Assembly (NCBI GenBank): GCA_016181175.1
Contig: JACOZV010000004.1
Span: 7,718-71,717 of the forward strand
Length of the DNA stretch: 64,000 nt
DNA from: Candidatus Yanofskybacteria bacterium
GTDB lineage: Bacteria; Patescibacteriota; Minisyncoccia; 2-02-FULL-40-12; IGHO2-01-FULL-4-A
Reading direction: 5' to 3'
Shown: positions 2,275 through 64,000 of the stretch, one piece after another
Position numbering within the stretch: position 1 is the stretch's first letter
Layout: each line of letters begins with the position of its first letter
Made by a program: the position numbers and the translations under genes
Notes under the pieces: generated by a model
What the model saw: the letters and a program-made list of their open reading frames with translations, nothing else
Databases searched by the model: none
Told to the model about the DNA's origin: nothing

Positions 2275-2289
2275 ACATAATTGGGTTAA

Positions 2290-2988
2290 TTAAGGATTAG
2301 TGACGCCCTTGCATATTGCTTCCAATATGAGTTCTACTGATTTCTTGGAATTGTCGTTGGCCCCGATAGGATAATCGATCAGTTTGGGGTCACTATCGGT
2401 ATTAACTATGCCAACGACTTTAACACCTGCTCTTTTGGCTTCATGAACTGGCAATTGGCTCTCCTTAAGCGAGGTAATAAAAATTATGTCGGGAATACGT
2501 GACAGTTTGCGGATACCGCCGAATTTCAACTTCAGGCCTGCGATTTCTTTTTCTTTTAACACCTTTTCTTTTTTAGTAAACTTGTCAAAACCGCCTTCGG
2601 CTTGTTTTTTTTCAAGTTCTTCCAAATATTTAATCCTACCGGTAATTGTTTTGAAATTTGTCAAAGTGCCCCCAAGCCAGCGGTTGATTACATACGGCAT
2701 ACCCAATGTCTCGGCTGTTGTTTTAATCGAGTCGGCAGATTGTTTGGTCAAACCAACAAATAAAATCATCTTGCTTTCTGCCATGGCTTTCTTTAAAAAA
2801 TCCACCGCCTTAACGAGCGAATCTGTTGTTTTGATCAAATCTAATATATAGATATTATCTTTCAGGGTATAGATGTACGGTTTCATGTTTGGGTGGAAAA
2901 TCGTCTTCTTGCGCCCAAAATGCATCCCCGCCCTTACCATATCCTCATAGGCCGGCAAAAAACTGATTGTATTGTTTACTTCAGGCAT
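2290..2988 (-). CDS. rpsB: 30S ribosomal protein S2
   Basis: MVRAGMHFGRKKTIFHPNMKPYIY...NRWLGGTLTNF... is typical S2. I prefer the ATG at 2988 (MPEVNN...) over the longer ORF start at 3045. Confidence 0.9.
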   Translation of the reverse strand: MPEVNNTISFLPAYEDMVRAGMHFGRKKTIFHPNMKPYIYTLKDNIYILDLIKTTDSLVKAVDFLKKAMAESKMILFVGLTKQSADSIKTTAETLGMPYVINRWLGGTLTNFKTITGRIKYLEELEKKQAEGGFDKFTKKEKVLKEKEIAGLKLKFGGIRKLSRIPDIIFITSLKESQLPVHEAKRAGVKVVGIVNTDSDPKLIDYPIGANDNSKKSVELILEAICKGVTNP

Positions 2989-3247
2989 GCTGAAAATAAT
3001 AACAAAAAAATTGGGGATATGCAACACAGCACTCGCCACCCACAAAAATTACAAACTTAATTAGCAATAGGATTTATCTACCGGCTCCGCGCGCGCGTTT
3101 TGCTGGCCGCTACGCGAACAGGCACAAAACCCACGCGCCTTCACCGGAAAACCCGTCGGACTAGCACTTTGTCTTAGAAATTTACGACCGATAAAAACTG
3201 CCGATTGGTATCGGCTTGGGGTTTGTAATCTTTGATGAAAAACAAAA

Positions 3248-3263
3248 GCCGAGGTGTCTCGGC
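3248..3263 (-). terminator. Rho-independent terminator after the 1231-aa gene
   Basis: On the minus strand, GCCGAGACACCUCGGC is followed by UUUUGUUUUU. Confidence 0.6.
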
Positions 3264-3288
3264 AAAAATTGACAGTTGCCCCTATGAC

Positions 3289-6200
3289 TTATTTATAAAA
3301 ATTCCAGAAATTTCCAAAAATATCTAACGCTTTGTCTTTTAACCCCCCCCCCCCCGTAACTTGTATTTCCAAACTGGAATCGCTGAAATTACCGGCCAGA
3401 TCAAAAACTCTGGCAGTTATTTTATGCTTTCCCGACTCAAAAAACGGGACAAGCAACTCCAAAGCAACAGGAAAAAATATTCCATCATCAATCTTAAAAT
3501 AAACAACCGGCTGAACAATTTCCTCGAAACCCACACTGAATTTAAATCTCACAGTCTCGCCGATTTTCACCGACAAAGAACTCGCCTTTATTACTGGCGG
3601 TGCCGGCGGCGTTGAATCAATCATAATTTTGAATTGGGAAACCGGCCCGAGACGGCCATCGGTGTCTTCTGCCTGGAGACGAAAATAGTATATGCTGTCT
3701 TCATCAATGGAGATGTTAAGAAAATTGTCCGAAGTTGAAACGGCTTTGCCCGGTATAAAGTCCGGGGTTTGATTCAACGCATAGTGATAAACGCCGCCTT
3801 CAAGCAACGGCCAAGCCAGCTGAATATCTTTTTTATGATACCAGCGATTGCTGTTGGGATGGCTTGGTGAAAATATGGGTATTATTTCATTAATGCTCGC
3901 GTTGGTTAATCCTTGTCGGGTAATACTGTAAAAAGCGTCACTTGCCGCCCTAAGCACATCGGTCCCCAAGCCGTCATTGGCAAGAACTTGCGTCCCTTCG
4001 GCGAATTTAAGCGAAGCCCCGCCCACAGTTAACGGCTGCACTACAAGCTCGGCTACCGTACCGGACGGTTCGGAAAATCCGGGATTAGGAACGCCGCAAA
4101 CAATTGTTACCGTTCCCGCCGCATTATCAATATCTTTTTCCAAAAAAAGTCCGGGATCGCACAAGGAATTGGCCGTCAAAATATCAACTATTTCAAACAC
4201 GCTCGGGTCATATTTTATTACCGCGCTCACGACATTGATAATTTCTCCACCGGTAAGCACCTTTATGGCAATGTTTTTTTCAACAAATTGGTTAATGATA
4301 TCCGCTTCAGGTTCAAATTTAATCGTAGAATTATAGATAGAATACGGCGCTCTTTCTAATTTTATAGAAATGCGGTCCAGTTTGTTGTAACTGATAAAAT
4401 ACATCACGGAAAATAAAGTCAGGGTTATAATTAAAATAGTTGGAATCCGATGCCTATGATGGAAAACACTCAGGAAAAAAGATAAATATATGAAAATCGC
4501 AAGAAAAGCAAGCGCCATAAAACCGGCCAAAACAATGCTATAGAAATTGTGGCTGGTCGGAAAAAGAATAATCGTTCCGCCGGGGCTTCCCTCAATTCCC
4601 GGAAATACGATATTGCTGACAATGTAATATTCCTCGCTTATTTTAAGTTCTTTGGCAAATTTAGGAACTTGTTTGGCAATTAGGTCGGAACCAACCGAGA
4701 AAAAGCTATTCAGTATAAAAATAGTATCCTTATCCTTTAAGCTTGTGCTGATTAAACCCTCCTCTGGAGTATAAAAAATAACATGCGAACCATTCTTCAA
4801 ATACTTGTCCTGAAACCGTACGGCATAAGAATTGTTAAATAAGTTTCCCAGAACAATAGCGCCGATAACTTTGTCATCTTCTAAAATAAGGGAGTTGCTT
4901 ATTGCGGCCAGGGGATTTTTGACCCCACGGACGATTTCAGTAACCGTTTCACCTTTAGCCACCCGCCTTCCTTGGATAGTGGTTTGAAAAACATTATCTC
5001 CGCGTTGATCCGGCAAATGTGAACGAACAAGCACAAATCCGTCCTTGTCAGTTACGGCAATAAAACTAAGTTCCCTTTCTTTTGCTTCAGCTTGCACGAT
5101 GGAGAGAAGCTCCAGCGTATCGCCTGCCTTCAGGGCATCGTTAAGAACTCCTGAAGAGACAATCTCCTCTCTTTGGTCAGAAATGTATTTGAGTTCCTCG
5201 GAAAAAACAGTCTTTAGTTGAATAATTTGTTTATCAGTTGAATAAGAATACCACAAGCCCAAGAGCCAGTTAGAAAATAGCATAATGATTACAAACACCA
5301 GAATGCTTAGCAATATTTCAATCATCTCTTTTTTGTGTATCCAGTCGGTTTTGCTTTTTTTATTTAATTTCTTTTTTTTACGATATTTTTTAATTAAATA
5401 ACTCTTAACTTCATGCCCAGTAGCTAGAATCTCCTTTTTTGTCGCGACAAAAATGAGCGCAATAATCAAAATAGAGGAAACCAAAAGCCATTCATTTTTA
5501 ATAAAGTTAATGAAGCCGCCGAATATCTTTGTCAAAAAGTCAAAAATTAGTTCGGTAAAAGACCCGGATTTTACCCTAAATGATACTCGGTTAGAATCAA
5601 TAGAAATGGCACTCCTGTCATCAACCGCCTGCGCCGTCACCTCGTGGCGACCTCCTCGTTCCGGCTTAAACTCAACCTGCCAATATCCATTGGCATCGGC
5701 GTGCGTTTCCAGTATGTATTCCGGGTTGACCCTGATGGCAACCCGAACTTTTTGGTTGGGCTTGGCTTTTCCATTTATAGTAATGGTTTCGCCTATTTTA
5801 ACTTGCGGCTTTTCTATTTGATTTAAAATCACCGGCTCTATTGATTGAATCTCCATTTGATAGTCAGATTCTGAATAATTCCCTGCTTTATCAAAAGCTC
5901 TTATGATAATCTTGCGCACCCCTGGCAATTGCAAAGGCATTTTATATAATCCGGCCAACCCCGGTTCTATTTTTAACCAGTCACTCTCACCGATTTTCAT
6001 TTCATATCTATCAATACCAGATGTACCGTCTGAAGTATCAAAAGCGAGTCTGGGTTGCGGGTTGGTTAAGTCCGCCACATCCAATCTGGTTATTTTAAAA
6101 TCTGCGGGTTTTTGGGTATCAACGTTAAACTTAAACGAAGTTACGGGACCTAATCCCGCTGGTGTTTTCGCACGGGCGTTAAAATAAAATTCGCCCTCTC

Positions 6201-10296: not shown

Positions 10297-12393
10297 TTAC
10301 TGATTCGTTTTAGGATTTAGATAGCCCTGAAGCTGGTTTAAATAGTTTGTGGTGTCATAGCGGTCCGGATCAAGATATAAAGATTTTTGAAACGAGTCTT
10401 CCGCTTTTTCAAACTGACCAGTCCTGAAATAAGCTAGACCAAGCCACATATAACTCTCTGGGGTTTTCTCGCCCATATCAATCGCGTTCTCCAGAAAAAT
10501 AATCGCCGAAATTAAACTCTGGGGATCATTCTTCCACACTTTAATAGAACCCATATACAACCAAACCCAGCTGTTTTTAGGATATTCGGCCACTACTTTT
10601 TTCAAGACAGAAGTGGACAAATTTTCACTGCCCATTAAATAAATAAACCGGCCGGCAATAATTCTATCTAACACATCATCGGACGTCAGCATGTGGTTAA
10701 TTCTCTCGTTGAGATTTCCAGGAGTACTAAATTTATTAATAACTTCACTGTTCTGAGGAATGTTTCTCAAAAGAATTACTGCATAAGAATCAATATAAAC
10801 TAATGACCATAATGGATCGCGCAAGCGCCTCAATAAAAAACTTCCCACAACCGGACTTCCGTCCCGCAAACTTATAAATATCGCGTTCAGGTTATATTTA
10901 TCCCGCGCTTCAATCCATTTTTCTTCACTTGATAGCGCCGGTATGAAAACATCATCAAAAAAAGAAACAGGATAAGAATCGGCTCCATTGTTGTCAACAA
11001 AAACACGCTCTTTAGGAAATAAGTGATAAATAATATAACCTCCGATATCATAATCATTAAAAATAGGACCTTTTAAGTTATTATTCTTGAAAAATTCTCC
11101 GGCATCATTTGAGTGGCGACCTAATCCAATGCCCCAGTCATTCTTATATCCCCGCGAAGCCGCATCCGCATTCAAATCATAAGCCTTATAAGGATAAACA
11201 GCAGAGATAATGACAACTAAACTATACCCTAACACGACTGCCAATTTTGGCCTTTTTTGCCTTAACCAATTTTTTATCGCAAGAAAAACACCATTAAAAT
11301 TAGACGAAACCGCGGGTAAAAATATAAACGCAAAAAGAGTAATTAATCTAATTTGGTTAAGTCCCGCGACGGCGCTAGCAAGTCCGGCCAATAAAAAGAA
11401 TATCGGTTTGTTTTTGTAGCGAAAACCAAAAATGGAACTAAAAAGAAAAATAAATACCATGGGCGCAAATGGCGAATTGAAAATATCCCACGAAAAAATA
11501 CTGGCTTTCAAATTAAAAAATGGCTGGTTTTCGCTTACCGAAAATGAGGCATAGTGAAATTTAATTTTAAGCGGAGCAAGCGCTCCTTCTAAGCCGTTGG
11601 GGTTGATAAATATTACAGCGAACAGTATAAACAGGACCGAAAGTAATTTTTTAACCACCGGATCATTTCGCAAATTTTTTAAATTTATTCTCCAATCCGC
11701 CAGCCGCCCGAATTGGCGGAGGCGGATTTTGGGCATATATAAAACAACTTTCTCAAACAAAAATCCGGCAACCAGAACGATGCCGAGAAAAAAGAAAAGA
11801 TGAAAATTAACCCACAAAAGCTGAAGCGGAATAAGCCAAAAAATCCTTTTTCTTTCCGGATGTTTTTCCAGGTCAAACAGCAAATAAAGAAACAGGGCGA
11901 GAAAAAGATAACTGAACATTTCCGGCCGTATTCTGTTGCGGCCCGCCAAGATCAAAATAGTCGGCAAAGAAAAAACCGCCACCAACCAAAAGTTAGCTTT
12001 TTTCATTGCTGCAATAAAAAGAATAGCGAAAGCGGAAAGAAGAATCGCGGTTTTTAAAATAGTCAATGCCCCAAAGCCGAAGATTTCGGACACGAGATAA
12101 AAAACAACGCTACTCATCCAGTGATGGTCGTATACAGGATGGTCCGGCACCGTAAAAGAATAGATGTTATTTCTAAATACATTTTGAGTTTCCCAAATCG
12201 TTTTGCCGTCCATAATATACAGACCGGTGTCGTTATCCATGTGCGGCAAACTTATCTTAATAAGCAAAAAAGAGGCATAAAAAGCCAGAATGATAATAAA
12301 AATCAGAATTTTCTTATAATCGGCGGGAATCAAATTCTTCATAAAACATTTTAGAGATAGCGCCAATGACATTGGAAAGTTTTTCAATGTCAT
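10297..12393 (-). CDS. Polytopic membrane protein with C-terminal TPR repeats (GT-C/ArnT-PMT-like glycosyltransferase fold suspected)
   Basis: More than 10 hydrophobic helices are followed by a soluble region ending in TPR-like WLGLAYFRTGQFEKAEDSFQKSLYLDPD. The true start may be an internal Met (12372 or 12342), because the ORF overlaps the upstream gene. Confidence 0.55.
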   Translation of the reverse strand: MTLKNFPMSLALSLKCFMKNLIPADYKKILIFIIILAFYASFLLIKISLPHMDNDTGLYIMDGKTIWETQNVFRNNIYSFTVPDHPVYDHHWMSSVVFYLVSEIFGFGALTILKTAILLSAFAILFIAAMKKANFWLVAVFSLPTILILAGRNRIRPEMFSYLFLALFLYLLFDLEKHPERKRIFWLIPLQLLWVNFHLFFFLGIVLVAGFLFEKVVLYMPKIRLRQFGRLADWRINLKNLRNDPVVKKLLSVLFILFAVIFINPNGLEGALAPLKIKFHYASFSVSENQPFFNLKASIFSWDIFNSPFAPMVFIFLFSSIFGFRYKNKPIFFLLAGLASAVAGLNQIRLITLFAFIFLPAVSSNFNGVFLAIKNWLRQKRPKLAVVLGYSLVVIISAVYPYKAYDLNADAASRGYKNDWGIGLGRHSNDAGEFFKNNNLKGPIFNDYDIGGYIIYHLFPKERVFVDNNGADSYPVSFFDDVFIPALSSEEKWIEARDKYNLNAIFISLRDGSPVVGSFLLRRLRDPLWSLVYIDSYAVILLRNIPQNSEVINKFSTPGNLNERINHMLTSDDVLDRIIAGRFIYLMGSENLSTSVLKKVVAEYPKNSWVWLYMGSIKVWKNDPQSLISAIIFLENAIDMGEKTPESYMWLGLAYFRTGQFEKAEDSFQKSLYLDPDRYDTTNYLNQLQGYLNPKTNQ

Positions 12394-50567: not shown

Positions 50568-52250
50568 CTATTTGATCAATTTCTTATTCCAGCCCTTTGA
50601 TTTGATGAACTTGAGCGTGCCTTCGATTTCGGCTTTCCTAAACTTGTTTGGTTTCCATGCTTGAATCTTGTCATTGATCGTTGTGAGATCGTCGCTTTTT
50701 GCATCCTGCACAACCTTGCAGACGGTTGCCAAGCACTCAATTTGAGCGCTGGTGGAGTTTTTAATTGCCGGCATAAGATCATTAAGGACGGACTCCATGT
50801 TGCTCAAGATTTTTGAGTTGTATTTGAAGAGTTTACCGGAGTTAGCGCCTAAACCATAGACGCCGTTTTTTTGCTGAAAGAAGCCATTGCGAGGACTTGC
50901 GCCGGCGGTGATGGCTTTCTTAATCTGTAGATCGTAGGGGCCGAAGTTCTGCGAGGTAAAGCTGAAGCCGAGCGGTACCCTGTAAACTTCCTGCGCGAGA
51001 TATAAGAGCTTCGCCACAACCATTTCACCACGTTCAAAACGTTGCAACACCGCTCCGATGGCTTGCCACACCGGAAAGACACTTGCTTTGACAGGAACAG
51101 CAGCCACGCCCTCTTTTACCAACTCACCAGCAAGCGCTTTTGACAAGGCGGAATCAAAAAGTTCCTTCAGCTTCTCTTTTTGAACGAGAAGTCCTTTTTT
51201 ATACTCTTTAATAGCACTAAACCTCTCGGCAATGGCATGCTGGTCTGTCGTTGGTGGTACCATGATTTTTATTTTTTTAAGTGCGGTAGAGTTTACTGCG
51301 GCTTGATTTACCCACGGCGTGCATAGATAACGAAATCTATCGGTTGAATATAAGTATTGAAGATATATAGAGAAGTAGCGCGGATCTAATACTTTTTCGT
51401 TTGTGCGAATCCGAGTGATGTGATTTGAAAAGACATACTTGTAATCCTTGTCTATGTAAACGCTTTTTCCAACTAAACTAATACTGTTTGTATTATTAAA
51501 TAGGACATCACCACTCTTCAGGAAATAAGTTTCCGCATGTGGGTAATCCTGTGGAATATACTTGATGCTATCAAAGTTCAAACTACCGTCATCGCCGATA
51601 TTATTAGGTCTGATTTGTCCAATACCCTTCCCAACCGGACGGAAGGCAAAACCATTCGTAACATCGACTACTAACGCACCGATCTTTTCTTCCTTCCAGC
51701 TTTTTGACGATGATCCAAAAATCTTATTCAAAAGCGACTGAAAAAGCTGATCTGTTTTTTCAATAAGCGCATCATTGAGTTTTTGGGCTTCGCGGATAGA
51801 ATCAACACGTTCTGCAATTGCTTGTTGGGTATTTAAAGACGGCATTGGTACTCGTAAATTTTCAAGGAAGGTTCTATTCAAATGTGGTACTGCCGCTCCT
51901 TGCGCTGCTGATCTAATTTTTTGCTGATTAAATTGCAAAAGGTAAGCAAGGTATCGACTTTCCAGTGTTTCGTTATGAACCACTTTAGCAATCGTGGAAC
52001 CAACAAATCCTCTTAAACCGATACCAACGGTGCCGGCATAAGCACCATCCCAAACCAATAAAACATCGTCATTGTCGCATCGAACTCCGTTATTTTCTGA
52101 AGTGTAAAGCGTATATTGACCACTTCTTAAATTTTCAATGCCAATATAAGGCAAGGTGTCCTTTGCGGCTTCTGCTGCGGAAATCATCATTTTACCTTTC
52201 GCAAAAGAAATAAGTTCGCCTAATTTTTTTGTTTGATAATTACTTTGCAT
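50568..52250 (-). CDS. hsdS: Type I restriction-modification specificity subunit HsdS with a ~180-aa C-terminal Panacea/DUF4065 (SocA-like) extension
   Basis: Two target-recognition-domain halves are separated by conserved helices (..AIAERVDSIREAQKLNDALIEKTDQLFQSLLNKIF.. and ..AIAERFSAIKEYKKGLLVQKEKLKELFDSALSKAL). They are followed by ...VVAKLLYLAQEVYRVPLGFSFTSQNFGPYD..., which resembles the KLxKLLYxAQ...GPV core of DUF4065. Confidence 0.7.
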   Translation of the reverse strand: MQSNYQTKKLGELISFAKGKMMISAAEAAKDTLPYIGIENLRSGQYTLYTSENNGVRCDNDDVLLVWDGAYAGTVGIGLRGFVGSTIAKVVHNETLESRYLAYLLQFNQQKIRSAAQGAAVPHLNRTFLENLRVPMPSLNTQQAIAERVDSIREAQKLNDALIEKTDQLFQSLLNKIFGSSSKSWKEEKIGALVVDVTNGFAFRPVGKGIGQIRPNNIGDDGSLNFDSIKYIPQDYPHAETYFLKSGDVLFNNTNSISLVGKSVYIDKDYKYVFSNHITRIRTNEKVLDPRYFSIYLQYLYSTDRFRYLCTPWVNQAAVNSTALKKIKIMVPPTTDQHAIAERFSAIKEYKKGLLVQKEKLKELFDSALSKALAGELVKEGVAAVPVKASVFPVWQAIGAVLQRFERGEMVVAKLLYLAQEVYRVPLGFSFTSQNFGPYDLQIKKAITAGASPRNGFFQQKNGVYGLGANSGKLFKYNSKILSNMESVLNDLMPAIKNSTSAQIECLATVCKVVQDAKSDDLTTINDKIQAWKPNKFRKAEIEGTLKFIKSKGWNKKLIK

Positions 52251-52869
52251 AAGAATGCGCAGAGTATTGAATTCTACCTACGCGGTTTAATAAGCGCGTA
52301 TCCCGAACTTTTAAGTTTTCACCATCTTTATCGAATGGCCTTATTTCTGCTTTCCAAATAGATCTACAAAAAACAGTGTTCTGATCATTCATATATGTAA
52401 TTTCTAAACATACTGGTATCGCAAATTCAGCCATTTCATACCATTCTCTAAAATTTTTTATGAGTTGAAGTTTGATTCTAAATGACTCATCCTCTGTGGT
52501 CTGATAGAGGGGCACCTTATGATATCTTTCTTCTGCGATGGGCATACCGGTCGCTTTGGGTTGGGAGATATTAAAAGCCGATCCGCGACCAGAATTGAAA
52601 CAGTCAAACTCTATGGAAAAAACTATTTCAAAATGATTCGCATCAGCACGGATTATGCTTCCGGCATCCATCACACCATATCCATGCTCTACTTCACTAT
52701 GTCTAACCCCAACCCATATTCTTAATGGACGCAAAATTAAGCTGGGTACTGTACTTAATGCAGAATTCCAATCTGCTTTTCTGATAGCTTTTATCGAAAT
52801 CCACAGTGAAACAACTGCGGTTATCCCGACTAAAATATCTGCCGTTTTAGAAATTATTTCAAAATTCAT
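52240..52869 (-). CDS. 209-aa single-pass membrane protein inserted between hsdM and hsdS
   Basis: N-terminal TM helix (ADILVGITAVVSLWISIKAI) and a beta-rich soluble domain. It starts 6 nt after the hsdM stop and overlaps the hsdS start by 11 nt. No recognised family. Confidence 0.55.
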   Translation of the reverse strand: MNFEIISKTADILVGITAVVSLWISIKAIRKADWNSALSTVPSLILRPLRIWVGVRHSEVEHGYGVMDAGSIIRADANHFEIVFSIEFDCFNSGRGSAFNISQPKATGMPIAEERYHKVPLYQTTEDESFRIKLQLIKNFREWYEMAEFAIPVCLEITYMNDQNTVFCRSIWKAEIRPFDKDGENLKVRDTRLLNRVGRIQYSAHSYAK

Positions 52870-52875
52870 AATCTT

Positions 52876-54405
52876 TTATCCCAGTTTATCTGTCATCTCT
52901 TCTTGTAATTTTGTTAGATCTTTATTGATTTTCTCAATTTCTTTCAAAATAATTTTTGGCTCGCGGTGTTTTATCTCTTCTCCGATAGCATATGGGTTAT
53001 AAGTGTTTGCAGAAAGTATGTAATCATTTTCGATGATTTCTTTAACTGGCGTAAACCATGCAAGCTGTTTTTCAACTGCGCGGTTTTTATGCCAGAGTTC
53101 CAACAGCTTCGGAATATCATTTCTATATTGGCTGCCGAATTTTTTGGATGCTGAAAGCGATGAACCATCACCTTGCATATCAAAGAACCATACCTTTGCA
53201 GATTCATCGAGTTTCGGCACCGCCTTTTTTTTGAACACCAAGAAGGACGTTTTTACGCCGGCATACGGCTGAAACACGCCTGCCGGCATGGAAACAACCG
53301 CCTGTAAGTCCGTATTTTCAAGTAGAAAACGGCGGATCTCTTTATCATCGCGGTTGGTACCAAAAAATGAACCTTCGGGAAGGATTATGCCGGCTCTGCC
53401 ATTGGGCTTGAGCGAGTTTATAACATGACCCAAAAATAGAACCTGTGTTTTGGTTGATTTGACCGGCAAGGTTGGTTTTATACGTTCCCGATCAACCTTT
53501 CCAGAGAATGGTGGATTTGTAAGGACAATATCGAATGTGCGCAGATCATCCTCATCTTCAGATCCAGCAACCGTGTCTTTGCGCTTAATGTTCGCACTCT
53601 CTATGCCATGTAATATCAAATTCATAAGTGCTAACCGCACCATCTCCGGATCAACATCAGAACCCAAAAAGGTTTTTTTGGTTAGAAATTCCCACTGTTT
53701 TTTATCGAGCTTATCTCCAAACCCCCTCTTGTGTCCATTTTCCTCTTCAATGCTTTTGGGATCGCTATTTCTTAATCGGATCCAATCATAGCCGGAGATG
53801 AGGAAGCCACCAGAACCACACGCAGGATCATAAACAGTTTCGCCAATTTTTGGATTCACCATTTCAACTATGACGCGAACGATATGACGCGGAGTGAGAA
53901 ATTGTCCAAGTTCGCCGGCTGATTCAATACTTGCAAGCAGCTCTTCATAAAGATCGCCCTTAACATCTGTGTCTAATCCTGTTAAATTGATCGTGTCAAT
54001 AATTTCAATCGTGTTTTTTAATGTAACAGAATGGGGAATTTCGAGCTTCGCATCATAAAAAATTTGCCGTATGTTAGAGTGTCCATTTTGCAATCGCTCC
54101 ACAAAGGGAAATACCTCATCACGAACAATTTTATACAATTCATCGCCAGCTTTTTCTTTCCAGCGCGACCATCGGAATTTTTCGTTTTTGCCCTCGAAAA
54201 TTGATTTATGTTTACGCCCAGTAAGTTCTTCGCCTCTCTCCATAGAAATATCCTGTTCCTCAAGCATTTTCAAAAAAAACAAAAAGCTAATCTGCTGGAT
54301 CCTTCTCACAGGGTCTCGTAAACCTGCACCCCAAAGATAATCGTTCAGGCGATCTAATTTTTGGCGAAACTCTATTCTTAATTGTTGTATTTTTTGTTCG
54401 GGCAT
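52876..54405 (-). CDS. hsdM: Type I restriction-modification N6-adenine DNA methyltransferase subunit
   Basis: HsdM N-terminal domain, AdoMet motif VYDPACGSGGFL and catalytic LTNPPF. Confidence 0.9.
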   Translation of the reverse strand: MPEQKIQQLRIEFRQKLDRLNDYLWGAGLRDPVRRIQQISFLFFLKMLEEQDISMERGEELTGRKHKSIFEGKNEKFRWSRWKEKAGDELYKIVRDEVFPFVERLQNGHSNIRQIFYDAKLEIPHSVTLKNTIEIIDTINLTGLDTDVKGDLYEELLASIESAGELGQFLTPRHIVRVIVEMVNPKIGETVYDPACGSGGFLISGYDWIRLRNSDPKSIEEENGHKRGFGDKLDKKQWEFLTKKTFLGSDVDPEMVRLALMNLILHGIESANIKRKDTVAGSEDEDDLRTFDIVLTNPPFSGKVDRERIKPTLPVKSTKTQVLFLGHVINSLKPNGRAGIILPEGSFFGTNRDDKEIRRFLLENTDLQAVVSMPAGVFQPYAGVKTSFLVFKKKAVPKLDESAKVWFFDMQGDGSSLSASKKFGSQYRNDIPKLLELWHKNRAVEKQLAWFTPVKEIIENDYILSANTYNPYAIGEEIKHREPKIILKEIEKINKDLTKLQEEMTDKLG

Positions 54406-54407
54406 AG

Positions 54408-56663
54408 TTATCGTGTACAGATCCTTTGGTTAAGCTCCGAGAGAGCGGATTGTAAAACACCTTCCTCAAACACTCGCAACGCATAATTAAGACCACCGAT
54501 TTGCCGGAAGATCGGCTCGTTGAATATGGAAATATCAACCGGCTCTTTGCGAACGATACATTGCGACTTTACCAAACGCAGGATTTTTATTTGATCGGAT
54601 GCAAAGTTTTTCTCGATTAGCCATGATTCAAAAAGCTGATTTACACGCTGCTCATGTAGTTGCTCTTCTGTAGGGAACTCCTTTGTTTTGAGTGCTGCTT
54701 GTATGAAGTCATTGAGCGTGCCTACCGGATAGCGATATGCTTCTCGCAAGTTTGCTTCGTTAAAATAGAACTCCGGAGAATTAAGTTTTTCGGAAAGGAA
54801 GGCGGTTTCGTCATTTGAAAGATCTTCGCCTTGTTTAACTTTTGAAATAAGCGGCTCGGTTTTAGCCATCTCTTGAACTTGCTGCTCCCATGCCACCTGA
54901 TAATCATCGGCATCAATTCTTTCGCCTTCTGCTCCAACTTCGATATGCGCACGCTGCATAACCACGTCCATGTTTTCGGGTGCTGTTTCCGGCACTTGAA
55001 CAAAAAGTCGCTTCACCACTTCTTCCTCTTCCTGCGTTAAATCTTCAGCTTCGGTTCCCCACGGAATACCAGCTTTAATTTTTGCATAGGCAGAATACGG
55101 ATCAAATCCTTCGTCATTGAAGTAACGAGTAACGCCAGCAAAGTCATAAATACGAAAAGATGTTTTGCTGATTTTTTGATATAATCGGCTGCCACGTCCT
55201 CGCATCTGTTGGTAAAGGATCGGGGAACGTGTAGGACGCGCCATGATCAAGTTTTCTACCATTGGGACATCGATGCCGGTATCCATCATACCCACCGAAA
55301 CCGCTACCATCGGCATTTCTTGGTGCTTAAAACGTCTTATGGCTCCACGAGGATCTTCGGTATCGGAAGTAATAACTTCAGCGTATCTTCCCTTATATTC
55401 CGGATATGTCTGATTGAGATAATACGCCAATTGCGCAGCGTGTTTTTTCGTAACAGCATAAAGAATGGTTTTGCGATGGTGTTTTGGTTCATGCTTTTCT
55501 TCTTCCTCTCTGAATGTTTTTGCCAATTGCTCGTTTCTTGCCGGCACATTGATTTTTCTCTCCAAATCTTCGGCGTTGTAATCTTCACCCTCAAATTGCA
55601 CACCTTCTAAAGACACTTTGGTGTCGATCTGTAAGATCTCATAACCAGCAAGAAATCCCTCTTTGATGCCTCGTCGAATACTGTATAGAAATGTCGGTTT
55701 ACCCTTTTTTTCACGCTCATCCCAACAACCAAAGAGCTTATAGGTGTTACGATCAATAAACACACTCGGCGTTGCTGTAAGACCTATCCGGATTGCGTCA
55801 AAATGCGATAGGACAGCGTTGTAGATGCCGAAGATGGATCTATGTGCTTCGTCCGAGATAACCACATCAAAATAACCACTTGTAAAATTCGATAGTTGCG
55901 AATAAAGAGTGGGAAGTGTCGAGATGATTATTGAGGATTCGTCTTTTTGCTTGCCTCCGTAAAGAAGCTTTGTAGGATAATCTTTCAAAATTTCATCAAA
56001 AACTTCCTTTGTTTGTATGCCTAAATCAATGCGATCAACAAGAAATAAAACACGCCGGATGAGATTCGCTTCAAACAGCCGTTTGAGATAAAGAGCTATG
56101 GTATCTGTCTTGCCAGTGCCGGTTGCCATAGCGATGAGCATTTTGCGCAAACCGCCCTCAATGGTTTTGTCCATGATCTGCATGGCCTCCTTTTGATATG
56201 GGCGTGGTGTGCGTAATTCGCCACCTTTAAAATAATTGTCGGGTACAGGAATGGCGGTTATCGGCTTTTGATCTATTCGTAGGGTTTGGATTTTTTCTAA
56301 ATCGCGTTGAGAAAAGAAGGTAATTACCTTTTGCTCTGGACGATATTTGTAATCCCAAAAATAAATATCCTCTCCATTGGAAAGGAAAATGAAATCGATA
56401 CCCAGCTCTTCTGCGTAGGTCAATGCCTGCTGTTTTGCCAATACTGGTTCAGTTGAAAACCGCTTTGCTTCGATAAGCCCGATGGCTCTGCCGCGTCTAT
56501 CCCTCAAGAAATAATCGGCACGTCCATCCTTCACCGGATCTTCGGTTGAAACTTGATTTTTATCCTCAATATCCCAGCCAGCTTCGCGGAGTTTGCGATC
56601 GATGACAATGCGAGCGTCCGTTTCTCTTGAGTTGTTATTGTTATTTGTCATATTCATTTTCAT
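54408..56663 (-). CDS. hsdR: Type I restriction enzyme R subunit (nuclease plus SF2 helicase)
   Basis: N-terminal PD-(D/E)xK (ADYFL...IGLIEAKR), Walker A MATGTGKT, DEAH (ISDEAHRS) and later helicase motifs. 2-nt gap to hsdM. Confidence 0.85.
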   Translation of the reverse strand: MKMNMTNNNNNSRETDARIVIDRKLREAGWDIEDKNQVSTEDPVKDGRADYFLRDRRGRAIGLIEAKRFSTEPVLAKQQALTYAEELGIDFIFLSNGEDIYFWDYKYRPEQKVITFFSQRDLEKIQTLRIDQKPITAIPVPDNYFKGGELRTPRPYQKEAMQIMDKTIEGGLRKMLIAMATGTGKTDTIALYLKRLFEANLIRRVLFLVDRIDLGIQTKEVFDEILKDYPTKLLYGGKQKDESSIIISTLPTLYSQLSNFTSGYFDVVISDEAHRSIFGIYNAVLSHFDAIRIGLTATPSVFIDRNTYKLFGCWDEREKKGKPTFLYSIRRGIKEGFLAGYEILQIDTKVSLEGVQFEGEDYNAEDLERKINVPARNEQLAKTFREEEEKHEPKHHRKTILYAVTKKHAAQLAYYLNQTYPEYKGRYAEVITSDTEDPRGAIRRFKHQEMPMVAVSVGMMDTGIDVPMVENLIMARPTRSPILYQQMRGRGSRLYQKISKTSFRIYDFAGVTRYFNDEGFDPYSAYAKIKAGIPWGTEAEDLTQEEEEVVKRLFVQVPETAPENMDVVMQRAHIEVGAEGERIDADDYQVAWEQQVQEMAKTEPLISKVKQGEDLSNDETAFLSEKLNSPEFYFNEANLREAYRYPVGTLNDFIQAALKTKEFPTEEQLHEQRVNQLFESWLIEKNFASDQIKILRLVKSQCIVRKEPVDISIFNEPIFRQIGGLNYALRVFEEGVLQSALSELNQRICTR

Positions 56664-56676
56664 TCTTGAGCTTGAT

Positions 56677-58476
56677 CTATAAATTCTCGTAATACCCCCT
56701 GATCTTTTTCGCCATGAGTTTGCGGCGTTCCTTCAAAAACCTTTCGTAATCCCCAAGCTCCATATTCTGAAAGCCATCCGGTATGCAATTCTGTTTTAGG
56801 TTCTCGGCGAGATCTTTTTTATCGGTTATGCCGCCATACTTGAGCTTGCCTCCTTCGGTTTGTTTCATTACTTCAGCCATGTACTCTTTGGGAGATTTTT
56901 TGCCGACTTTGATATTTATTTCAGATTGAGCATAAGTAAAGTTGCCAATCTGGTTGTAATCGCCCCTACTTAAGCCGCCTGCTTTCTTCAGGTATTCCTT
57001 TGGAAAGAGATGATGGATGTCGCCGCGATGACTGATCATATTACCAACGGTAATGTCGGTTGAAAGAAAGCCCCTGTCGTTATTTTTAACCTGTGCCGCA
57101 AAAAAAAGATTGAGAAATGGATTGCTGATGCTCGCCTTATCGAGTTCCTGAATAAGCTGCGCGTTCCAAAAAGCATCGGAGAGTTGCGCTTCTTCGATTG
57201 ATTTCAAAATCTCGCCAGCATCGCCATTGGAAATCTGCTTAATATCCGAATCAAATTGGCTTTCCGGTGATCCGGAATAACGTCCGGTGAGGATAGACAT
57301 CACAAACCAGCGTTGGACATACTTTTCGATCAAGCTTGGATCGACACTCTTATCGCGCAGCTTGAGATATAAAATATAGGCAAAGTTAAGAGCGTTTTGC
57401 GAATTGATAAGGTCGTTGCTTATAAAGCCGCAGGATTTGATGATCATTACAAACCGCTTGAAGTTTGTTTCATTTACAAAATCCAGTACCGCATCACGGA
57501 GTTTTTGGAAAGACGCATCCATTATGTCTTGCTCAAAACTGCGTGTTTCAAAGTTACGCCCCGAAAGCAGTCCGACAAGATCCGCCATCTTGCCTCGTTC
57601 AAATTGTTTGGTGAAACTCACACGCAACACATCGGAATAATCCGGATCGTAGAGGTCGTCATTTTCATCTTTAAGCCATGCAAGTTTTGAAAGGTAAACA
57701 GTTTTGTTAAACTCTGCATCATTTTCAGTTATGTGTTTGTAAAACTGCGGCTCGCGCGCAAGATGGCAAAAATAGTCGACACACTTTCTTAAATTAACGC
57801 CGAAATTATCCTCCTTGTCATAAGAAGCTATCTTCGACATGGCAAAGTCAGCTTGGCTTAATACAACACCTTTGGAATTGATACGGATAAAAATCTCGGT
57901 AACCGTTTCAATATCTAAACCGGCATCAAGTTCAATAAAACCAACCTGCTTGCTTTTGATCTGTAATAACTTCTCAATGTTCTTTTCAATGAGTTCACGA
58001 TTTACGTCAAGATTTTTGTCGCAATAGTCAGTTACATCTTTGAATAAGCCGCCGTCCTTACTCATAAGTTTTGAGATGTCAGCTATCCACGCCTTGTCCT
58101 TTTTTATTGCCGGTGTGAGTGTGGCAAATTCTTCTATGATGGGGTGAAATGCAATATAGATCCGTTCCTCCTTATAATCTTTATTGATAATGTTTTGACC
58201 GAGAATTGCCGCACGGAGAGCGGTAATGCGTTGCTGTCCGTCAATCAAGACCTTTTTGCCGTTGGAAATGGAGCCATCTTTAAGACGAACATCGGGGTTT
58301 TTCCATGCAATGATATAGCCGATCGGATAGCCACGATAAAGCGAATCCATCAGATCGCGCACCTTTGTCGAATCCCAAACAAACGGACGCTGGATTTCCG
58401 GTATAGCGATTTCCTTTTCCTGAACCCAATTCAGGATATTGCTCACAAAGTATTGATTGACTGTGTATTTTTGCAT
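56677..58476 (-). CDS. GmrSD/BrxU-like type IV restriction enzyme (DUF262 plus DUF1524)
   Basis: IPEIQRPFVW and LIDGQQRITAL (DUF262/ParB-like NTPase). The C-terminal His-Me finger context is GDIHHLFPKEYL (DUF1524). Start taken at MQKYTVNQ. Confidence 0.8.
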   Translation of the reverse strand: MQKYTVNQYFVSNILNWVQEKEIAIPEIQRPFVWDSTKVRDLMDSLYRGYPIGYIIAWKNPDVRLKDGSISNGKKVLIDGQQRITALRAAILGQNIINKDYKEERIYIAFHPIIEEFATLTPAIKKDKAWIADISKLMSKDGGLFKDVTDYCDKNLDVNRELIEKNIEKLLQIKSKQVGFIELDAGLDIETVTEIFIRINSKGVVLSQADFAMSKIASYDKEDNFGVNLRKCVDYFCHLAREPQFYKHITENDAEFNKTVYLSKLAWLKDENDDLYDPDYSDVLRVSFTKQFERGKMADLVGLLSGRNFETRSFEQDIMDASFQKLRDAVLDFVNETNFKRFVMIIKSCGFISNDLINSQNALNFAYILYLKLRDKSVDPSLIEKYVQRWFVMSILTGRYSGSPESQFDSDIKQISNGDAGEILKSIEEAQLSDAFWNAQLIQELDKASISNPFLNLFFAAQVKNNDRGFLSTDITVGNMISHRGDIHHLFPKEYLKKAGGLSRGDYNQIGNFTYAQSEINIKVGKKSPKEYMAEVMKQTEGGKLKYGGITDKKDLAENLKQNCIPDGFQNMELGDYERFLKERRKLMAKKIRGYYENL

Positions 58477-58477
58477 A

Positions 58478-58666
58478 TTACTTTTTTGGTTTCTTGATAT
58501 TCGATCGAGAACGAATAAACGCCTCGAGATCGCTCTCGCTGATCCGCCAATAGCCGACTTTGGTCGCCTTGAGCCGCCCACTCGAAATATAGCGATACAA
58601 GGATCGCTCGCTAACTCGCAAATACTTTGCCGCTTCACGTAATGTAAGAAATTTCTTTTTGGTCAT
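58478..58666 (-). CDS. Excisionase-family (MerR-like) helix-turn-helix DNA-binding protein
   Basis: FLTLREAAKYLRVSERSLYRYISSGRLKATKVGYWRISESDLEAFI is the classic HTH_17/Xis pattern. Its stop abuts the GmrSD-like start. Confidence 0.75.
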   Translation of the reverse strand: MTKKKFLTLREAAKYLRVSERSLYRYISSGRLKATKVGYWRISESDLEAFIRSRSNIKKPKK

Positions 58667-59098: not shown

Positions 59099-59371
59099 AG
59101 TTTTGTGAGCGGCGAGTTTTGAAACACAAAACCCACCACTGGGAGGGCTTGCGCCCCTATGGAAGTTTCCCTCCATAACGTTAGGCACGCCCCAAATGAT
59201 GGGTTTTCTATGCCTAACGATTTGCGACCATGCCGCCAGCCGAAGCCGATGGTTTAGATCATTTGATATCCAATTGTGTTTTTAAGTATATCAGAAAAAC
59301 ATGAGATCCTGCAACGGATGAAAAATACTGCTGGTCAAATGTGGCAAGGTCTGCTAAAATGAGTTTTAAGA

Positions 59372-60565: not shown

Positions 60566-62125
60566 ATGAAAAACATTTTTAGTGGTAACCACAAAAAAGG
60601 AAAGGTGTCCGACAAACTGAAGGGCGCGGAATTGGTTTTAGATGTGATCGAAAAAAGCGACTTATGGCTCTTTCACGATCAATTAAACGAGGCATACGCC
60701 GTTATAGCTGGTGATGGAGCATCAATAATGAAAATCGACTCGCAAAAGTTCCACAACTGGCTTTTTAATCATATCTATGACGAAACCGGAAAGATCAGCA
60801 ACACAGCCGCGTGCGAGGCAGCCATAAAGGTTCTGAAACATCAAGCAGAAACTGGGAATCTATTTGAGCTTGGAGTTAGGGTAAAACTGCGTGAGGGCGG
60901 TATTTGGTACGATCTCGGCGGTCAAAACTTTGTGAGTATCGCAGAAGATGGATGGTTGGTAACTGATCCTCCGCAACCAATCCTCTTTAAGAGGTTCGGG
61001 CATCAAAAAGAGCAGGTGCGACCGGAACGCGAGGGTAGCATGAATGAGTTTATGGAGCTTATTAACCTACAAGACAAAAAAGAATCTTTGCTCCTCATGG
61101 TTTACTTGGTTGCATCGTTTATTCCTAACTTTCCTCATCCTGTATTGATTGTGCATGGTTCGCAGGGGGCTGCTAAAAGTACCGCATGTAAATTGATTAA
61201 AGAATTAGTGGATCCATCTGCATTAGAAACTTCGACTATAAACGACGATAAAGACATAAAAGAATTGGTACAAGCCGCATCGCATCATTGGCTGTTAGTT
61301 CTCGATAATATCTCCTATATCTCCGAGAAAATCTCGGACACGATCTCACGAATATGTACCGGAGGCGGATTATCTAAAAGAATACATTATAGCAATGACG
61401 ACGACTTCATTTACAACTTTATGCACATAGTCGCCATTAACGGAATCCATCAGATCGTAAGCAAGCCCGATCTCCTCGATCGATCAATCTTGTTGGCGCT
61501 TGAACGCATCCCTGAAGATAAAAGGATAACGGAGGAGCAACTTTGGGGTCGTTTCAATGCAATGAAAGGAAGAGTTCTCGGCGCGGTTTTCGATGCCGTA
61601 TCCGGAGCATTGCGTGAATATCCGAATGTGCAGTTAGCAACATTGCCACGAATGGCGGACTTTGCACGCTGGGGATGCGCTATTGCGAGGACGCTCGGCT
61701 ACACCGACGAGGACTTTATGAATGTATACAAAACGAATATCGGAAGGCAGAACCAAGAGGCGCTTTCAGCAAGCGCCACAGCAGCAGTCATCATCAAGCT
61801 CATGGAAGATAATGATGTTTTCGAAGATACACCATCTGCTCTTTTGCGACTAATGGATCCGATAGCCGACGATCTCAAGGTAAAAGAAGCGAAGGATTAT
61901 CCACGACAGGCAAACTGGCTTTGGAGGCGCATTGAAGCGGTTATACCGAACCTTGCTGACGCCGGCATAAAGGTCGAGCAAACGAAAGATACTGAACGGA
62001 AGATAAAAATATCAAAGATATTGCGCGGTGATGACAGCACTGAAATTATGCCGTCTTCCGAAAAACCAGCAGAAGAACCTGCAAAAGACAGCATCGACAG
62101 CATAGACGGCACTTTCCCCCTGTAG
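60566..62125 (+). CDS. P-loop NTPase, SF3-helicase/VirE-like replication protein of mobile elements
   Basis: Walker A HGSQGAAKST and Walker B-like HHWLLVLDNIS. Its size and position are typical of plasmid or integrative-element replication helicases. Confidence 0.5.
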   Translation: MKNIFSGNHKKGKVSDKLKGAELVLDVIEKSDLWLFHDQLNEAYAVIAGDGASIMKIDSQKFHNWLFNHIYDETGKISNTAACEAAIKVLKHQAETGNLFELGVRVKLREGGIWYDLGGQNFVSIAEDGWLVTDPPQPILFKRFGHQKEQVRPEREGSMNEFMELINLQDKKESLLLMVYLVASFIPNFPHPVLIVHGSQGAAKSTACKLIKELVDPSALETSTINDDKDIKELVQAASHHWLLVLDNISYISEKISDTISRICTGGGLSKRIHYSNDDDFIYNFMHIVAINGIHQIVSKPDLLDRSILLALERIPEDKRITEEQLWGRFNAMKGRVLGAVFDAVSGALREYPNVQLATLPRMADFARWGCAIARTLGYTDEDFMNVYKTNIGRQNQEALSASATAAVIIKLMEDNDVFEDTPSALLRLMDPIADDLKVKEAKDYPRQANWLWRRIEAVIPNLADAGIKVEQTKDTERKIKISKILRGDDSTEIMPSSEKPAEEPAKDSIDSIDGTFPL

Positions 62126-62190
62126 GTTTTGGGGTTGTAGGGGTAAATAAAGAAATAGGAATTGCTGTCTGTGTTGTCGGTAAAAAAACT

Positions 62191-62418
62191 ATGAAGAATC
62201 GAACCGAACAATTTAGAGCATGGCGAAGGCGCAATCCGGCGGCATGGAACGCTATTGTAAAGCGCTGCAAGCGCAAGGGGCGCGCGCTCAAGCTACAGTG
62301 GGTTATAAACGAGTATTCGCGCTGGCAGAAGTGGTGTGCAGCGCATCCAGCACAACACCGTAAAATAGCACGCGATTCTTACCACAGAAGAAAAACAAAT
62401 AAGATCAGGGATGCTTGA
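62191..62418 (+). CDS. Hypothetical 75-aa basic protein
   Basis: Arg/Lys/Trp-rich ORF with no motif recognised. Confidence 0.35.
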   Translation: MKNRTEQFRAWRRRNPAAWNAIVKRCKRKGRALKLQWVINEYSRWQKWCAAHPAQHRKIARDSYHRRKTNKIRDA

Positions 62419-62690
62419 GTTGTATTCATTGTCAGATTTTTATCTGGCAGCAAGCTGGGTTGTATTCGTTGTCAAAGTGTACATGGATATAACTACAGTA
62501 GTAATGTGCGCATAAAAGATGGGGTTGAACAGGAGTGCGTGTCGTATTGTCAAGCTTCGAAGCAAGTATTGCACGCAAAGAAAAGATGGCTTGATTGAAA
62601 ACGTGTATTTGTTTGTCAAGCCCCGAAGAGAAAAACAAGGAAAAAAGTAAACATTGTATCGACAATGTATTGATAGTATAATGGCAATGT
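62417..62690 (+). repeat. Iteron-like array: 4-5 direct copies of ~GTTGTATTCGTTGTCAA
   Basis: gagttgtattcattgtcag (62417), gggttgtattcgttgtcaa (62457), gtgtcgtattgtcaag (62539), gtgtatttgtttgtcaag (62603) and a palindromic variant attgtatcgacaatgtattga (62653). Confidence 0.6.
62654..62682 (+). promoter_or_regulatory. Candidate promoter of the recombinase gene
   Basis: TTGTAT, a 17-nt spacer, then TATAAT. It overlaps the last iteron-like copy. Confidence 0.4.
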
Positions 62691-62691
62691 A

Positions 62692-62808
62692 CCCCCAGTT
62701 GCACTACAATCCGTGATTTTTTATTGGCTTCTGCCCTTAAGGGGGGCGGTGCCGGAAGCCAATCCTCACGGAAAAAGCGACTGGGGTACCACCGCTCCCT
62801 TTAAGTTT
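62692..62808 (+). promoter_or_regulatory. Highly structured 5' leader of the serine recombinase gene (nested stems plus a long-range pairing onto the start-codon region)
   Basis: P1 is 62693-62699 with 62780-62786, P2 is 62711-62716 with 62766-62771, and P3 is 62723-62731 with 62755-62763. Also, 62742-62751 (gggggcggtg) is complementary to 62790-62799 (caccgctccc), 10 nt before the ATG. Confidence 0.4.
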
Positions 62809-64000
62809 ATGAAAAACGAACAAAATACAACTAAAAATAAGGCGATTTCCTTTTGCCGCGTAAGCTCGAAGGAGCAAGCCGATGAGGGTTATTCGCTTGA
62901 ATCGCAGGAAAAGCTACTTGAGGCATACGCTACAGACGATAAACGAGATTTTAAGATCATCAAGATCTATAAGATCACGGAATCAGCGAGCGGAAAGCAG
63001 GTACGAAAGACATTTCAGGAAGCACTGAAATACGCCACTGATCAAAAAATAAAGATCATTCTGTGTGAAAAGATTGATCGATTAACACGCAACCTTAAAG
63101 ACGCCAGCACAATTGACGATTGGGTAAAGGATAAAGACACTACCGGTCGGCAGGTTCACTTTGTAAAGGAAAACTTTATTCTTAACGCTGATACAAAGGC
63201 ACACGATAACCTTGTGTGGGATATGAAGGTGGCTATTGCGCGTTTCTATTCAAACAATCTATCCGAAGAAGTGAAGAAGGGGCAAAAGGAAAAGATCGCG
63301 CAAGGATGGCTTCCTACGAAGCCGCCGCTTGGGTATCGCACGATCGGCGACAAAGGGCATAAAACGCACGAAATTGACGAGAAGATCGCCCCATATATCC
63401 GTAAGATGTTTGAGCTTTACGCTACCGGTAATTACTCAACGCTTTCTTTGGTAAGGGTTATGTACAAGGAAGGTTTGCGCAACCGCGAGGGTAAAAGGGT
63501 TGGAAAGAGTAGATTGCATCAATTGCTTTCGGATCCATTTTATTACGGCAAGATGCGATGGAAAGGCGAGGTTGTTAAAGCAGAACACGAACCCCTTATT
63601 CCGAAAGAATTGTTTGACGACGTTCAAAAAATACTTGTCCGGAAGATCAAATATCCCATGTATAGGAAACACCTCCCTATATTTAAGGCGATGCTGCGCT
63701 GCGGAGAGTGCAAAGGCACTGTTACGTGGGAAATACAAAAAAATCATTGGTACGCTCACTGTAGCCATTACCGAAACTGCAAGCAAAAAAAGTATGTCCG
63801 GCAGGAAGCTGTCGAAGAACAGCTTTTCCCATACTTTGATCGAGTTGCCCCGATAAACACGCGCTTGCTGCAGTGGCTTGAGAAGCAGCTTAAAGAAAGC
63901 CACACCGAAGAGATCAAATACAACACCTCAAAGCGAGAGGAGTTAAACCGGATCATCGCAACCGCCGATAGACGGATCGAGGCGGCGTATAAAGAGAAGC
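62809..64000 (+). CDS. Large serine recombinase (partial, continues past the window)
   Basis: Hand translation gives MKNEQNTTKNKAISFCRVSSKEQADEGYSLESQ... (catalytic Ser in RVSS), ...DRLTRN, a recombinase domain (GWLPTKPPLGYR) and a zinc-ribbon CGECKG...HC...C. There is no stop before 64000, which is why it is absent from the ORF track. Confidence 0.85.
   Translation, partial: MKNEQNTTKNKAISFCRVSSKEQADEGYSLESQEKLLEAYATDDKRDFKIIKIYKITESASGKQVRKTFQEALKYATDQKIKIILCEKIDRLTRNLKDASTIDDWVKDKDTTGRQVHFVKENFILNADTKAHDNLVWDMKVAIARFYSNNLSEEVKKGQKEKIAQGWLPTKPPLGYRTIGDKGHKTHEIDEKIAPYIRKMFELYATGNYSTLSLVRVMYKEGLRNREGKRVGKSRLHQLLSDPFYYGKMRWKGEVVKAEHEPLIPKELFDDVQKILVRKIKYPMYRKHLPIFKAMLRCGECKGTVTWEIQKNHWYAHCSHYRNCKQKKYVRQEAVEEQLFPYFDRVAPINTRLLQWLEKQLKESHTEEIKYNTSKREELNRIIATADRRIEAAYKEK

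Follow-up and report, generated by a model that had tools for sequence, protein, structure and literature searches.

What is the structured segment that lies directly in front of a large serine recombinase (LSR) gene in the DNA of a Candidatus Yanofskybacteria bacterium? LSRs are the main tools for the insertion of large DNA cargo and yet, to our knowledge, almost nothing is known about how their expression is controlled in nature. The stretch analyzed here, 64,000 nt in length and referred to below as the window, ends within such a gene. The original prediction described upstream of it three nested helices around a G-rich loop complementary to the nucleotides that precede the ATG, and offered several readings: a pseudoknot or alternative fold that occludes translation initiation, a recombination site at the DNA level, or a part in RNA-guided recombination. 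The recombinase contains the Pfam domains Resolvase, Recombinase and Zn_ribbon_recom and matches a PHROG integrase (E 4.6e-70).

According to RNAfold the segment folds into three stacked helices (P1, P2, and P3, together A-A'), closed by an apical loop of 21 nt that contains a G-rich segment, B; the nucleotides between P1 and the recombinase gene include a pyrimidine-rich tail, B', complementary to B (Table 1). The nested helices anticipated from the sequence are present, with some adjustment of their length: the 7-bp helix is the core of P1 (62693-62699 with 62780-62786), which is 13 bp in full, and P2 comprises 7 bp where 6 had been counted. The 10-nt core of the complementarity between loop and tail, with one G.U pair, and the ATG at 62809 are as described, and the full pairing of B with B' amounts to 16 bp including two G.U pairs. 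The minimum free energy of the + strand is -49 kcal/mol (z = -3.2; 1 of 200 shuffles equally good), and the B-B' duplex reaches -28.8 kcal/mol vs. -12.0 +/- 2.7 for shuffled tails, none of 2000 attaining its value. Just 5' of B a CCC (62734-62736) could pair locally with the G-run. Loop B could also pair (-31.8 kcal/mol) with a C-rich segment, CGGCACTTTCCCCCTGTAGG, at the end of a gene for a 519-aa NTPase (62107-62128, + strand), a match that may be due to chance.

Table 1. Features of the leader, the recombinase gene and the neighboring defense genes in the window (coordinates as window positions; helices as predicted by RNAfold).
Feature	Position	Strand	Description
Sigma-70-type promoter (predicted)	62654-62682	+	-35 TTGTAT 62654-62659, 17-nt spacer, -10 TATAAT 62677-62682
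Predicted transcription start	about 62688-62689	+	placed from the promoter
Whole leader fold	62689-62805	+	three stacked helices (A-A'), RNAfold
P1	62689-62702 with 62777-62789	+	13 bp, C62696 bulged, one U.G; RNAfold
P2	62710-62716 with 62766-62772	+	7 bp; RNAfold
P3	62723-62732 with 62754-62763	+	9 Watson-Crick pairs and one U.G; RNAfold
A'	62754-62789	+	3' strands of P3 (62754-62763), P2 (62766-62772) and P1 (62777-62789)
U-run UUUUUU	62717-62722	+	5' side of the P2/P3 internal loop; conserved in the family consensus
B	62736-62751	+	G-rich apical-loop segment cttaaggggggcggtg, complementary to B'
B'	62790-62805	+	pyrimidine-rich tail caccgctccctttaag, adjoins P1 (0 nt) and stops 3 nt short of the ATG
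LSR gene	62809-64000	+	partial, runs past the window end; 397 codons
GmrSD-family nuclease	56677-58638	-	
Type I restriction-modification HsdR, HsdM, HsdS	50568-56663	-	
HTH_17 excisionase-like gene	58478-58666	-	

Whether such a structure has biological relevance can be judged from its occurrence in related loci. Homologues of the LSR (2149 proteins at E<=1e-40) are mostly from bacteria of the candidate phyla radiation (CPR), and the loci collected comprise 6 from genomes, 80 from metagenomes, a single contig that is nearly identical, and several contigs from IMG/VR; for every LSR gene, 200 nt of upstream sequence were read and folded. The same architecture recurs upstream of about half of 88 homologous LSR loci, mostly on CPR metagenome contigs. 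A first covariance model, built from one subgroup of the other loci with the window left out, finds a single match in the 64-kb window (62688-62808, + strand, 53.7 bits, E 1.9e-9) and also matches about 30 loci, and a second model built from 29 diverse members scores the window at 80.7 bits and gives + strand matches at E<=0.001 in 39 of the 88 sources. Additional members (L074, L080, L033, L034, and the variant of L002/L012) were recognized by eye. All significant matches but one precede the LSR and share its strand; the odd one is an additional copy in L081 (93-236, - strand, 36.5 bits, E 5.6e-6), which lies about 2.6 kb upstream of the LSR on the opposite strand and points out of the available locus. 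Ten extra matches obtained by a DNA-pattern scan of viral contigs turned out to be unrelated simple hairpins and were discarded.

Leader-less homologues, which account for about half of the close ones and include some at 49-67% identity, have a promoter and a short A/U-rich 5' UTR instead. Three motif-less loci (L013, L036, and L018) have in common a G+C-rich element, GGACACCGCGCACCC...GGGGGTAGGGGG, about 60-190 nt upstream of the LSR ATG, which may represent another conserved leader type. Comparison with Rfam, proposed along with the original prediction, was carried out and no family matches the leader: Rfam 15 gives no match to it in window 62300-63000 at E<=10, none in the whole window at gathering thresholds and none at the leader positions of 10 homologous loci at E<=0.1.

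Both pairings are conserved with compensatory changes across dozens of homologous loci, which bears out the covariation that the original prediction had asked for. Plain MAFFT alignments of whole leaders were structurally inconsistent and were replaced by model-guided alignments, in which 95.1% of the cells of the nested helices are paired and all 32 pairs show compensatory changes (helix 1, 14/14; helix 2, 9/9; helix 3, 9/9). The corresponding covariation score is 0.785 compared with 0.207 in shuffles, and sliding the partners reduces pairing to about 40%; this alignment is fitted to the structure that it evaluates, but the effect is nonetheless very large. For B-B' an ungapped alignment was used, anchored on the A|G and C|U sequence boundaries and held in register by artificial constant flanks (the anchor of the window row being shifted by 1 nt), and an alternative alignment of the pairs only was dropped as circular. 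B-B' is paired in 86.7% of cells vs. 65.1% in shuffles (reached by 0 of 500) and 36-62% when slid, with compensatory changes in 20 of 20 pairs, and RNAalifold applied to an unfitted MAFFT alignment of the B-to-B' segments likewise selects B-B'. Two comparisons illustrate the extent of the change: in L080 the B-B' helix is strand-flipped, the loop being C-rich and the tail G-rich, and between the window and L087, the recombinases of which are 93% identical, all four helices differ yet still pair. Sequence conservation is confined to the P2/P3 U-run and to the cores GGGCGG and CCGUCCCUUU.

The same alignments contain information on the strand involved. Across the pairs, G.U and U.G combinations number 57 and A.C and C.A combinations 6, an excess which indicates that the + strand is the folded strand. 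From these comparisons we infer a strand-specific structure that would act at the level of RNA rather than of single-stranded DNA. Taken as a whole, the leader is a genuine structured RNA, conserved in evolution and not represented in Rfam.

The position of the promoter is also conserved. Each of the 33 members whose available upstream DNA is long enough has a -10 hexamer, with a median of 5 matches out of 6, at 6-9 nt before the first base of P1; the distance is exactly 6 nt in 26 of them, and the -35 lies at a spacing of 16-18 nt. Only 2% of random positions score as well. The predicted transcript usually opens with AUG, GUG or UUG, the G of which is the first base of P1 (window 62686-62716), and mini-ORFs of 1 to 33 codons (9 in the window) occur at the 5' terminus, some members having none. 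A leader peptide read from the 5'-terminal AUG was discarded on account of this unconserved length and of the members that have no such ORF, and the start-like triplet probably reflects the context of transcription start rather than a leader peptide. Repeats are located upstream of the leader promoter (window 62416-62474, 62547-62628, and 62661-62670): one pair of 19 nt, TGrGTTGTATTCrTTGTCA, 40 nt apart, a second pair, TTGTCAAGCnnCGAAG, 66 nt apart, and an inverted partial copy that overlaps the promoter spacer just 3' of the -35. These repeats could be operators or iterons that control the leader promoter.

At its other end the leader abuts the coding region. The distance from the end of B' to the next start codon is 17 nt or less in 28 of 35 members and 37 nt or less in 33 of them (45-54 nt in L081, 128 nt in L009), this start codon being that of the LSR or of a small ORF ahead of it. 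As in leaders that sequester the initiation region, the B-B' helix would overlap the ribosome footprint (about -20 to +15). The spacer from B' to the ATG is A/U-rich and, L057 excepted, no Shine-Dalgarno sequence was found between them in the members; a Shine-Dalgarno-like motif is present in just 6 of the 40 genes of the window, so local structure should dominate initiation. Given the nearness of the tail to the start codon, the suggestion that an alternative fold occludes translation initiation is plausible. A further reading, in which the segment encodes an N-terminal extension of the recombinase, was rejected: the frame is open in the window (44 codons), and elsewhere in-frame stops occur 1-25 codons upstream of the ATG in nearly all members checked.

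How the two pairings relate to each other depends on their dimensions. Across members of the main type B-B' comprises 14-20 bp (-20 to -41 kcal/mol); the unpaired remainder of the loop is 0-4 nt per side (0-1 nt in the window), and 0-2 nt separate the helix from P1. A closed loop with connectors this short, spanning about 30 bp of stacked helix, leaves no room for 1.5 turns of duplex, so that full A-A' and full B-B' exclude each other; in their full form, the modeled geometry shows, the two are sterically and topologically incompatible. Of the two structures proposed originally, the alternative fold fits better and a simple pseudoknot fits more poorly, as B-B' consumes nearly the whole loop. 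When each fold is forced, the median energy difference (B-B' minus A-A') is -0.65 kcal/mol and 26 of 32 members fall within +/-5 kcal/mol; in the window A-A' is favored by 6.1 kcal/mol. In simulations of a growing chain A-A' forms first, and the barrier to direct refolding through nested structures only is 27-46 kcal/mol. Given this order and this barrier, the choice of fold would probably be made during transcription or with a helper, and reaching the off state would require a factor, processing or a pseudoknotted pathway.

GGG/CCC forms the base of B-B' in 24-29 of 30 members, and three to five U residues come next. These U residues pair with the A-run, and the helix encloses a loop of 38-60 nt; a U-run inside the helix and a loop of this size are atypical of an intrinsic terminator. 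Many members have a CCC(C) immediately before the A-run, with which the G-run can form a local pairing in competition with B'. A variant leader occurs in L002 (about 395-510) and L012 (about 600-715), with the same interleaved topology in reversed proportions: a long hairpin that resembles a terminator, AAAAGCGGrGU...ACyCCGCUUUU, precedes U residues, and its loop of 24-27 nt is complementary (7-12 bp) to the extreme 5' end of the predicted transcript.

The reading that we prefer, and to which we assign roughly an even chance of being correct, is that the leader is a cis-acting switch between two folds that governs expression of the integrase (LSR) operon. Transcription would begin at the P1 base, as suggested by the conserved promoter, and the nascent RNA would first form the long 5'-terminal hairpin A-A'. 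In that state B' and the A/U-rich initiation region devoid of a Shine-Dalgarno sequence would be single-stranded, and the mRNA would be read through and translatable, its 5' end probably being protected. In the alternative state loop B would pair with B' to give the helix of 14-20 bp, the G+C-rich base of which abuts the U-run and resembles a terminator; since this helix ends a few nucleotides before the start codon, initiation would be blocked, transcription terminated, or both. The amount of integrase would then be set by which fold forms. Both folds and the two ends of the transcript are predicted, and from the modeled folds we infer which state would be on and which off, as well as an output that may lie in translation, termination, stability or a mixture of these.

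Several known leaders resemble this arrangement in part. Attenuators of the terminator/antiterminator type (trp-type leaders, expression platforms of riboswitches) also have two exclusive folds, and the predicted B-B' helix may correspond to their G+C-rich helix with U residues before the regulated gene; in them the fold that forms earlier prevents the terminator, as A-A' precedes B-B' in the growing chain here. They differ in that the two helices of the leader have no nucleotides in common: topology makes them exclusive, since the "terminator" has its 5' strand locked in the apical loop of the "antiterminator", and the terminator-like hairpin encloses the 38-60 nt mentioned above. A sensor of the kind used by attenuators (leader peptide, ligand pocket, protein site, or tRNA) was not identified in the leader, where mini-ORFs are variable and few unpaired nucleotides are conserved. 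Translational control by long-range mRNA pairing is represented by fold-back inhibition in IS10, the 5' UTR of tnpA in IS200 and the leader of the MS2 maturation gene. In these systems, likewise, a helix that buries the initiation region limits a recombinase or low-copy protein and the order of co-transcriptional folding matters; the leader described here differs from them by involving no Shine-Dalgarno sequence, by its much longer helices and unrelated sequence, and in that no antisense partner was found for it. The repZ/repA pseudoknot of IncI-alpha/IncB plasmids is a helix of 5-8 bp that activates translation, needs translation of a leader peptide and is blocked by antisense RNA. There, as here, a G-rich hairpin loop (containing GGCG) is complementary to a sequence just upstream of the regulated start codon, whereas the leader helix has 14-20 bp and neither a conserved leader ORF nor an antisense promoter was found.

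The context of the leader in mobile elements bears on the remaining readings. In 6 of 10 related loci scanned (L003, L011, L012, L064, L080, and L087) the LSR gene is overlapped or directly adjoined at its 3' end by a tRNA gene of the opposite strand (in L087 at 11732-11803, - strand, where the LSR stop codon is at 11770); the identity of the tRNA varies among loci, and many contigs stop at the LSR 3' end. These observations place the element end, or att site, downstream of the LSR and the leader inside the element, so that the att site is most likely at the LSR 3' end, 1.6 kb from the leader, and these serine integrases appear to integrate into tRNA genes. A left end of the element, sought in the window with the L087 tRNA, was not found. 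The position immediately downstream of the LSR, taken up by the tRNA gene in other loci, shows in L008 a group I intron-like match (4597-4936, - strand) of 44.7 bits, below the gathering score of 50.

Carriers of the leader belong to two unrelated backbones, and the motif follows the LSR rather than the backbone. In the first, which resembles inovirus prophages, genes for Rep_G2P and Zot closely precede the leader and LSR and share their strand (L095 at 2096-4296, - strand; L003, L004, L058, L064, and others), in agreement with a published account in which inoviruses occur in CPR bacteria and inovirus genes include serine recombinases (PMC6813254). The second, to which the window belongs, includes DUF5659, a protein of 84 aa and either a P-loop NTPase or an AAA_25 helicase. 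The window, L087, L023, L060, and L063 all carry the motif together with the P-loop NTPase or AAA_25 helicase, and in their available flanks neither a Rep_G2P nor a Zot homologue was detected. In the window the integration module lies beside a defense island (50568-58666, - strand; Table 1). The leader-carrying element also encodes a LOOT RNA (RF03000; gathering score 46.4), found in the window at 59144-59260 (- strand, 71.1 bits) and in L087 at 5764-5884 (- strand, 77.2 bits) and placed between the side of the HTH_17 excisionase-like gene and that of the DUF5659 gene. The orphan motif thus lies in LSR-carrying integrative elements, apparently those of CPR bacteria.

Against this background the alternatives to a two-fold switch can be weighed. 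A static structure, in which a compact pseudoknot (with the stem bent at the U-rich internal loop or with P3 open) serves as a constitutive 5' stabilizer or translation enhancer without any switching, in the manner of the activator pseudoknot of IncI-alpha/IncB rep genes, would account for the covariation of both helices and for a predicted transcript that starts exactly at P1, as expected of a 5'-terminal stabilizing hairpin; moreover, the loops of the L002/L012 variant (about 25, 2, and 13 nt) allow a true H-type pseudoknot. In the main type, however, B-B' is too long (14-20 bp), and its connectors (0-4 nt) and linker (0-2 nt) across the stack of about 30 bp are too short, for it to form fully beside an intact P3, and the near-equal energies of the two nested folds suggest alternation, so that this reading is considered fairly unlikely. 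An unlikely reading, too, is a sensing leader similar to riboswitches, in which a metabolite or a phage or host protein (candidates include a single-stranded-DNA-binding protein, a small protein of 55-84 aa and the LSR itself) selects the fold. It is consistent with the two-state architecture and the conserved unpaired U-run and sequence cores, and it has a precedent in the Ff phage gene V protein, which binds the gene II leader and represses its translation. However, very few unpaired nucleotides are conserved, unlike in known aptamers, the leader has no Rfam match, and the neighboring small proteins show no detected RNA-binding domain. Regulation in trans might be exerted by a released 5' hairpin whose loop B pairs with the B' of other LSR mRNAs (copy-number sensing), or by an antisense or small RNA that binds strand A and flips the switch. 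The loop does present 16-20 fully complementary nucleotides and LOOT is encoded in the same element in the window and L087; complementarity between LOOT and the leader is, however, no better than in shuffles, no terminator follows P1 directly, and a scan that covers sigma-70-like promoters found no positionally conserved one on the minus strand beyond the leader's 3' end, the window lacking any and 13 of 35 members showing weak candidates at scattered sites, which makes regulation of this kind distinctly unlikely.

Other readings place the function of the element in DNA or in the recombination reaction. Strand-specific, long imperfect intergenic hairpins are typical of the single-stranded DNA origins and packaging signals of filamentous phages and rolling-circle elements, and a minus-strand (single-strand) origin or packaging signal on the + strand would suit the many carriers that are inovirus-like, with Rep_G2P and Zot just upstream on the same strand; a G.T bias cannot separate RNA from single-stranded DNA of the same polarity, a caveat on base-pair statistics that has been raised before (PMC5737381). 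This possibility is nevertheless quite improbable, as the motif also occurs in elements without Rep or Zot (the window, L087, and others), although these too may pass through a single-stranded DNA stage, is set between an ordinary promoter at a fixed distance of 6 nt and a start codon abutted by its tail, and tracks the LSR operon and not the replication module. A double-stranded att site or invertible segment, the reading suggested by the nested palindrome, was rejected: the att sites of LSRs are imperfect inverted repeats of about 40-50 bp that are split on integration, whereas this palindrome extends over about 117 bp with 38 nt between its repeats, shows the strand-specific G.U bias given above and remains whole in those contigs in which the LSR 3' end is marked by the tRNA gene. 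An RNA that helps the serine recombinase to choose or pair its DNA sites as guide or cofactor would parallel the bridge RNA of IS110 and the seekRNA of IS1111, which are also structured non-coding RNAs 5' of the recombinase gene of a mobile element, and would be in keeping with the conserved core of the loop. Yet the enzyme here is a serine recombinase and not a DEDD (RuvC-like) plus Tnp-domain one, and it has its full DNA-binding domains; the leader has no guide loops that match target or donor DNA and is dispensable in close homologues, those at 49-67% identity having short plain 5' UTRs. Neither a second copy nor a complement of B or B' (up to 2 mismatches over 16 nt) exists in any locus or in the 64-kb window, the longest matches between the leader and the att/tRNA region are 7-8 nt, equal to the shuffle mean, and LSRs are described in a 2026 review as recognizing their sites through protein alone (PMC13604230). 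The RNA-guided recombination raised by the original prediction is therefore extremely improbable. The tests made argue against simple complementarity of the guide type to the available att-side sequences. A different relation, rated very improbable, is binding of the leader to the serine recombinase or to a directionality factor as an RNA gate or decoy, by which the state of the element would be coupled to the activity of the integrase or to whether it integrates or excises.

Returning to the cis-acting switch, "RNA-regulated expression" matches the evidence assembled here, for "RNA-guided recombination" there is none, and the literature searched yielded no structured RNA or RNA partner for LSRs. 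The leader constitutes a widespread, strongly covarying RNA family in mobile elements of CPR bacteria, which include inovirus-like prophages and defense-gene islands, and its design is unusual in that two long helices are exclusive by topology and not by common nucleotides. If an interaction between leader and recombinase were true, it would provide the first RNA-modulated LSR. If the leader is a true switch, it would show how bacteria with minimal genomes and their elements time integration and excision, and it may offer a compact regulatory module.
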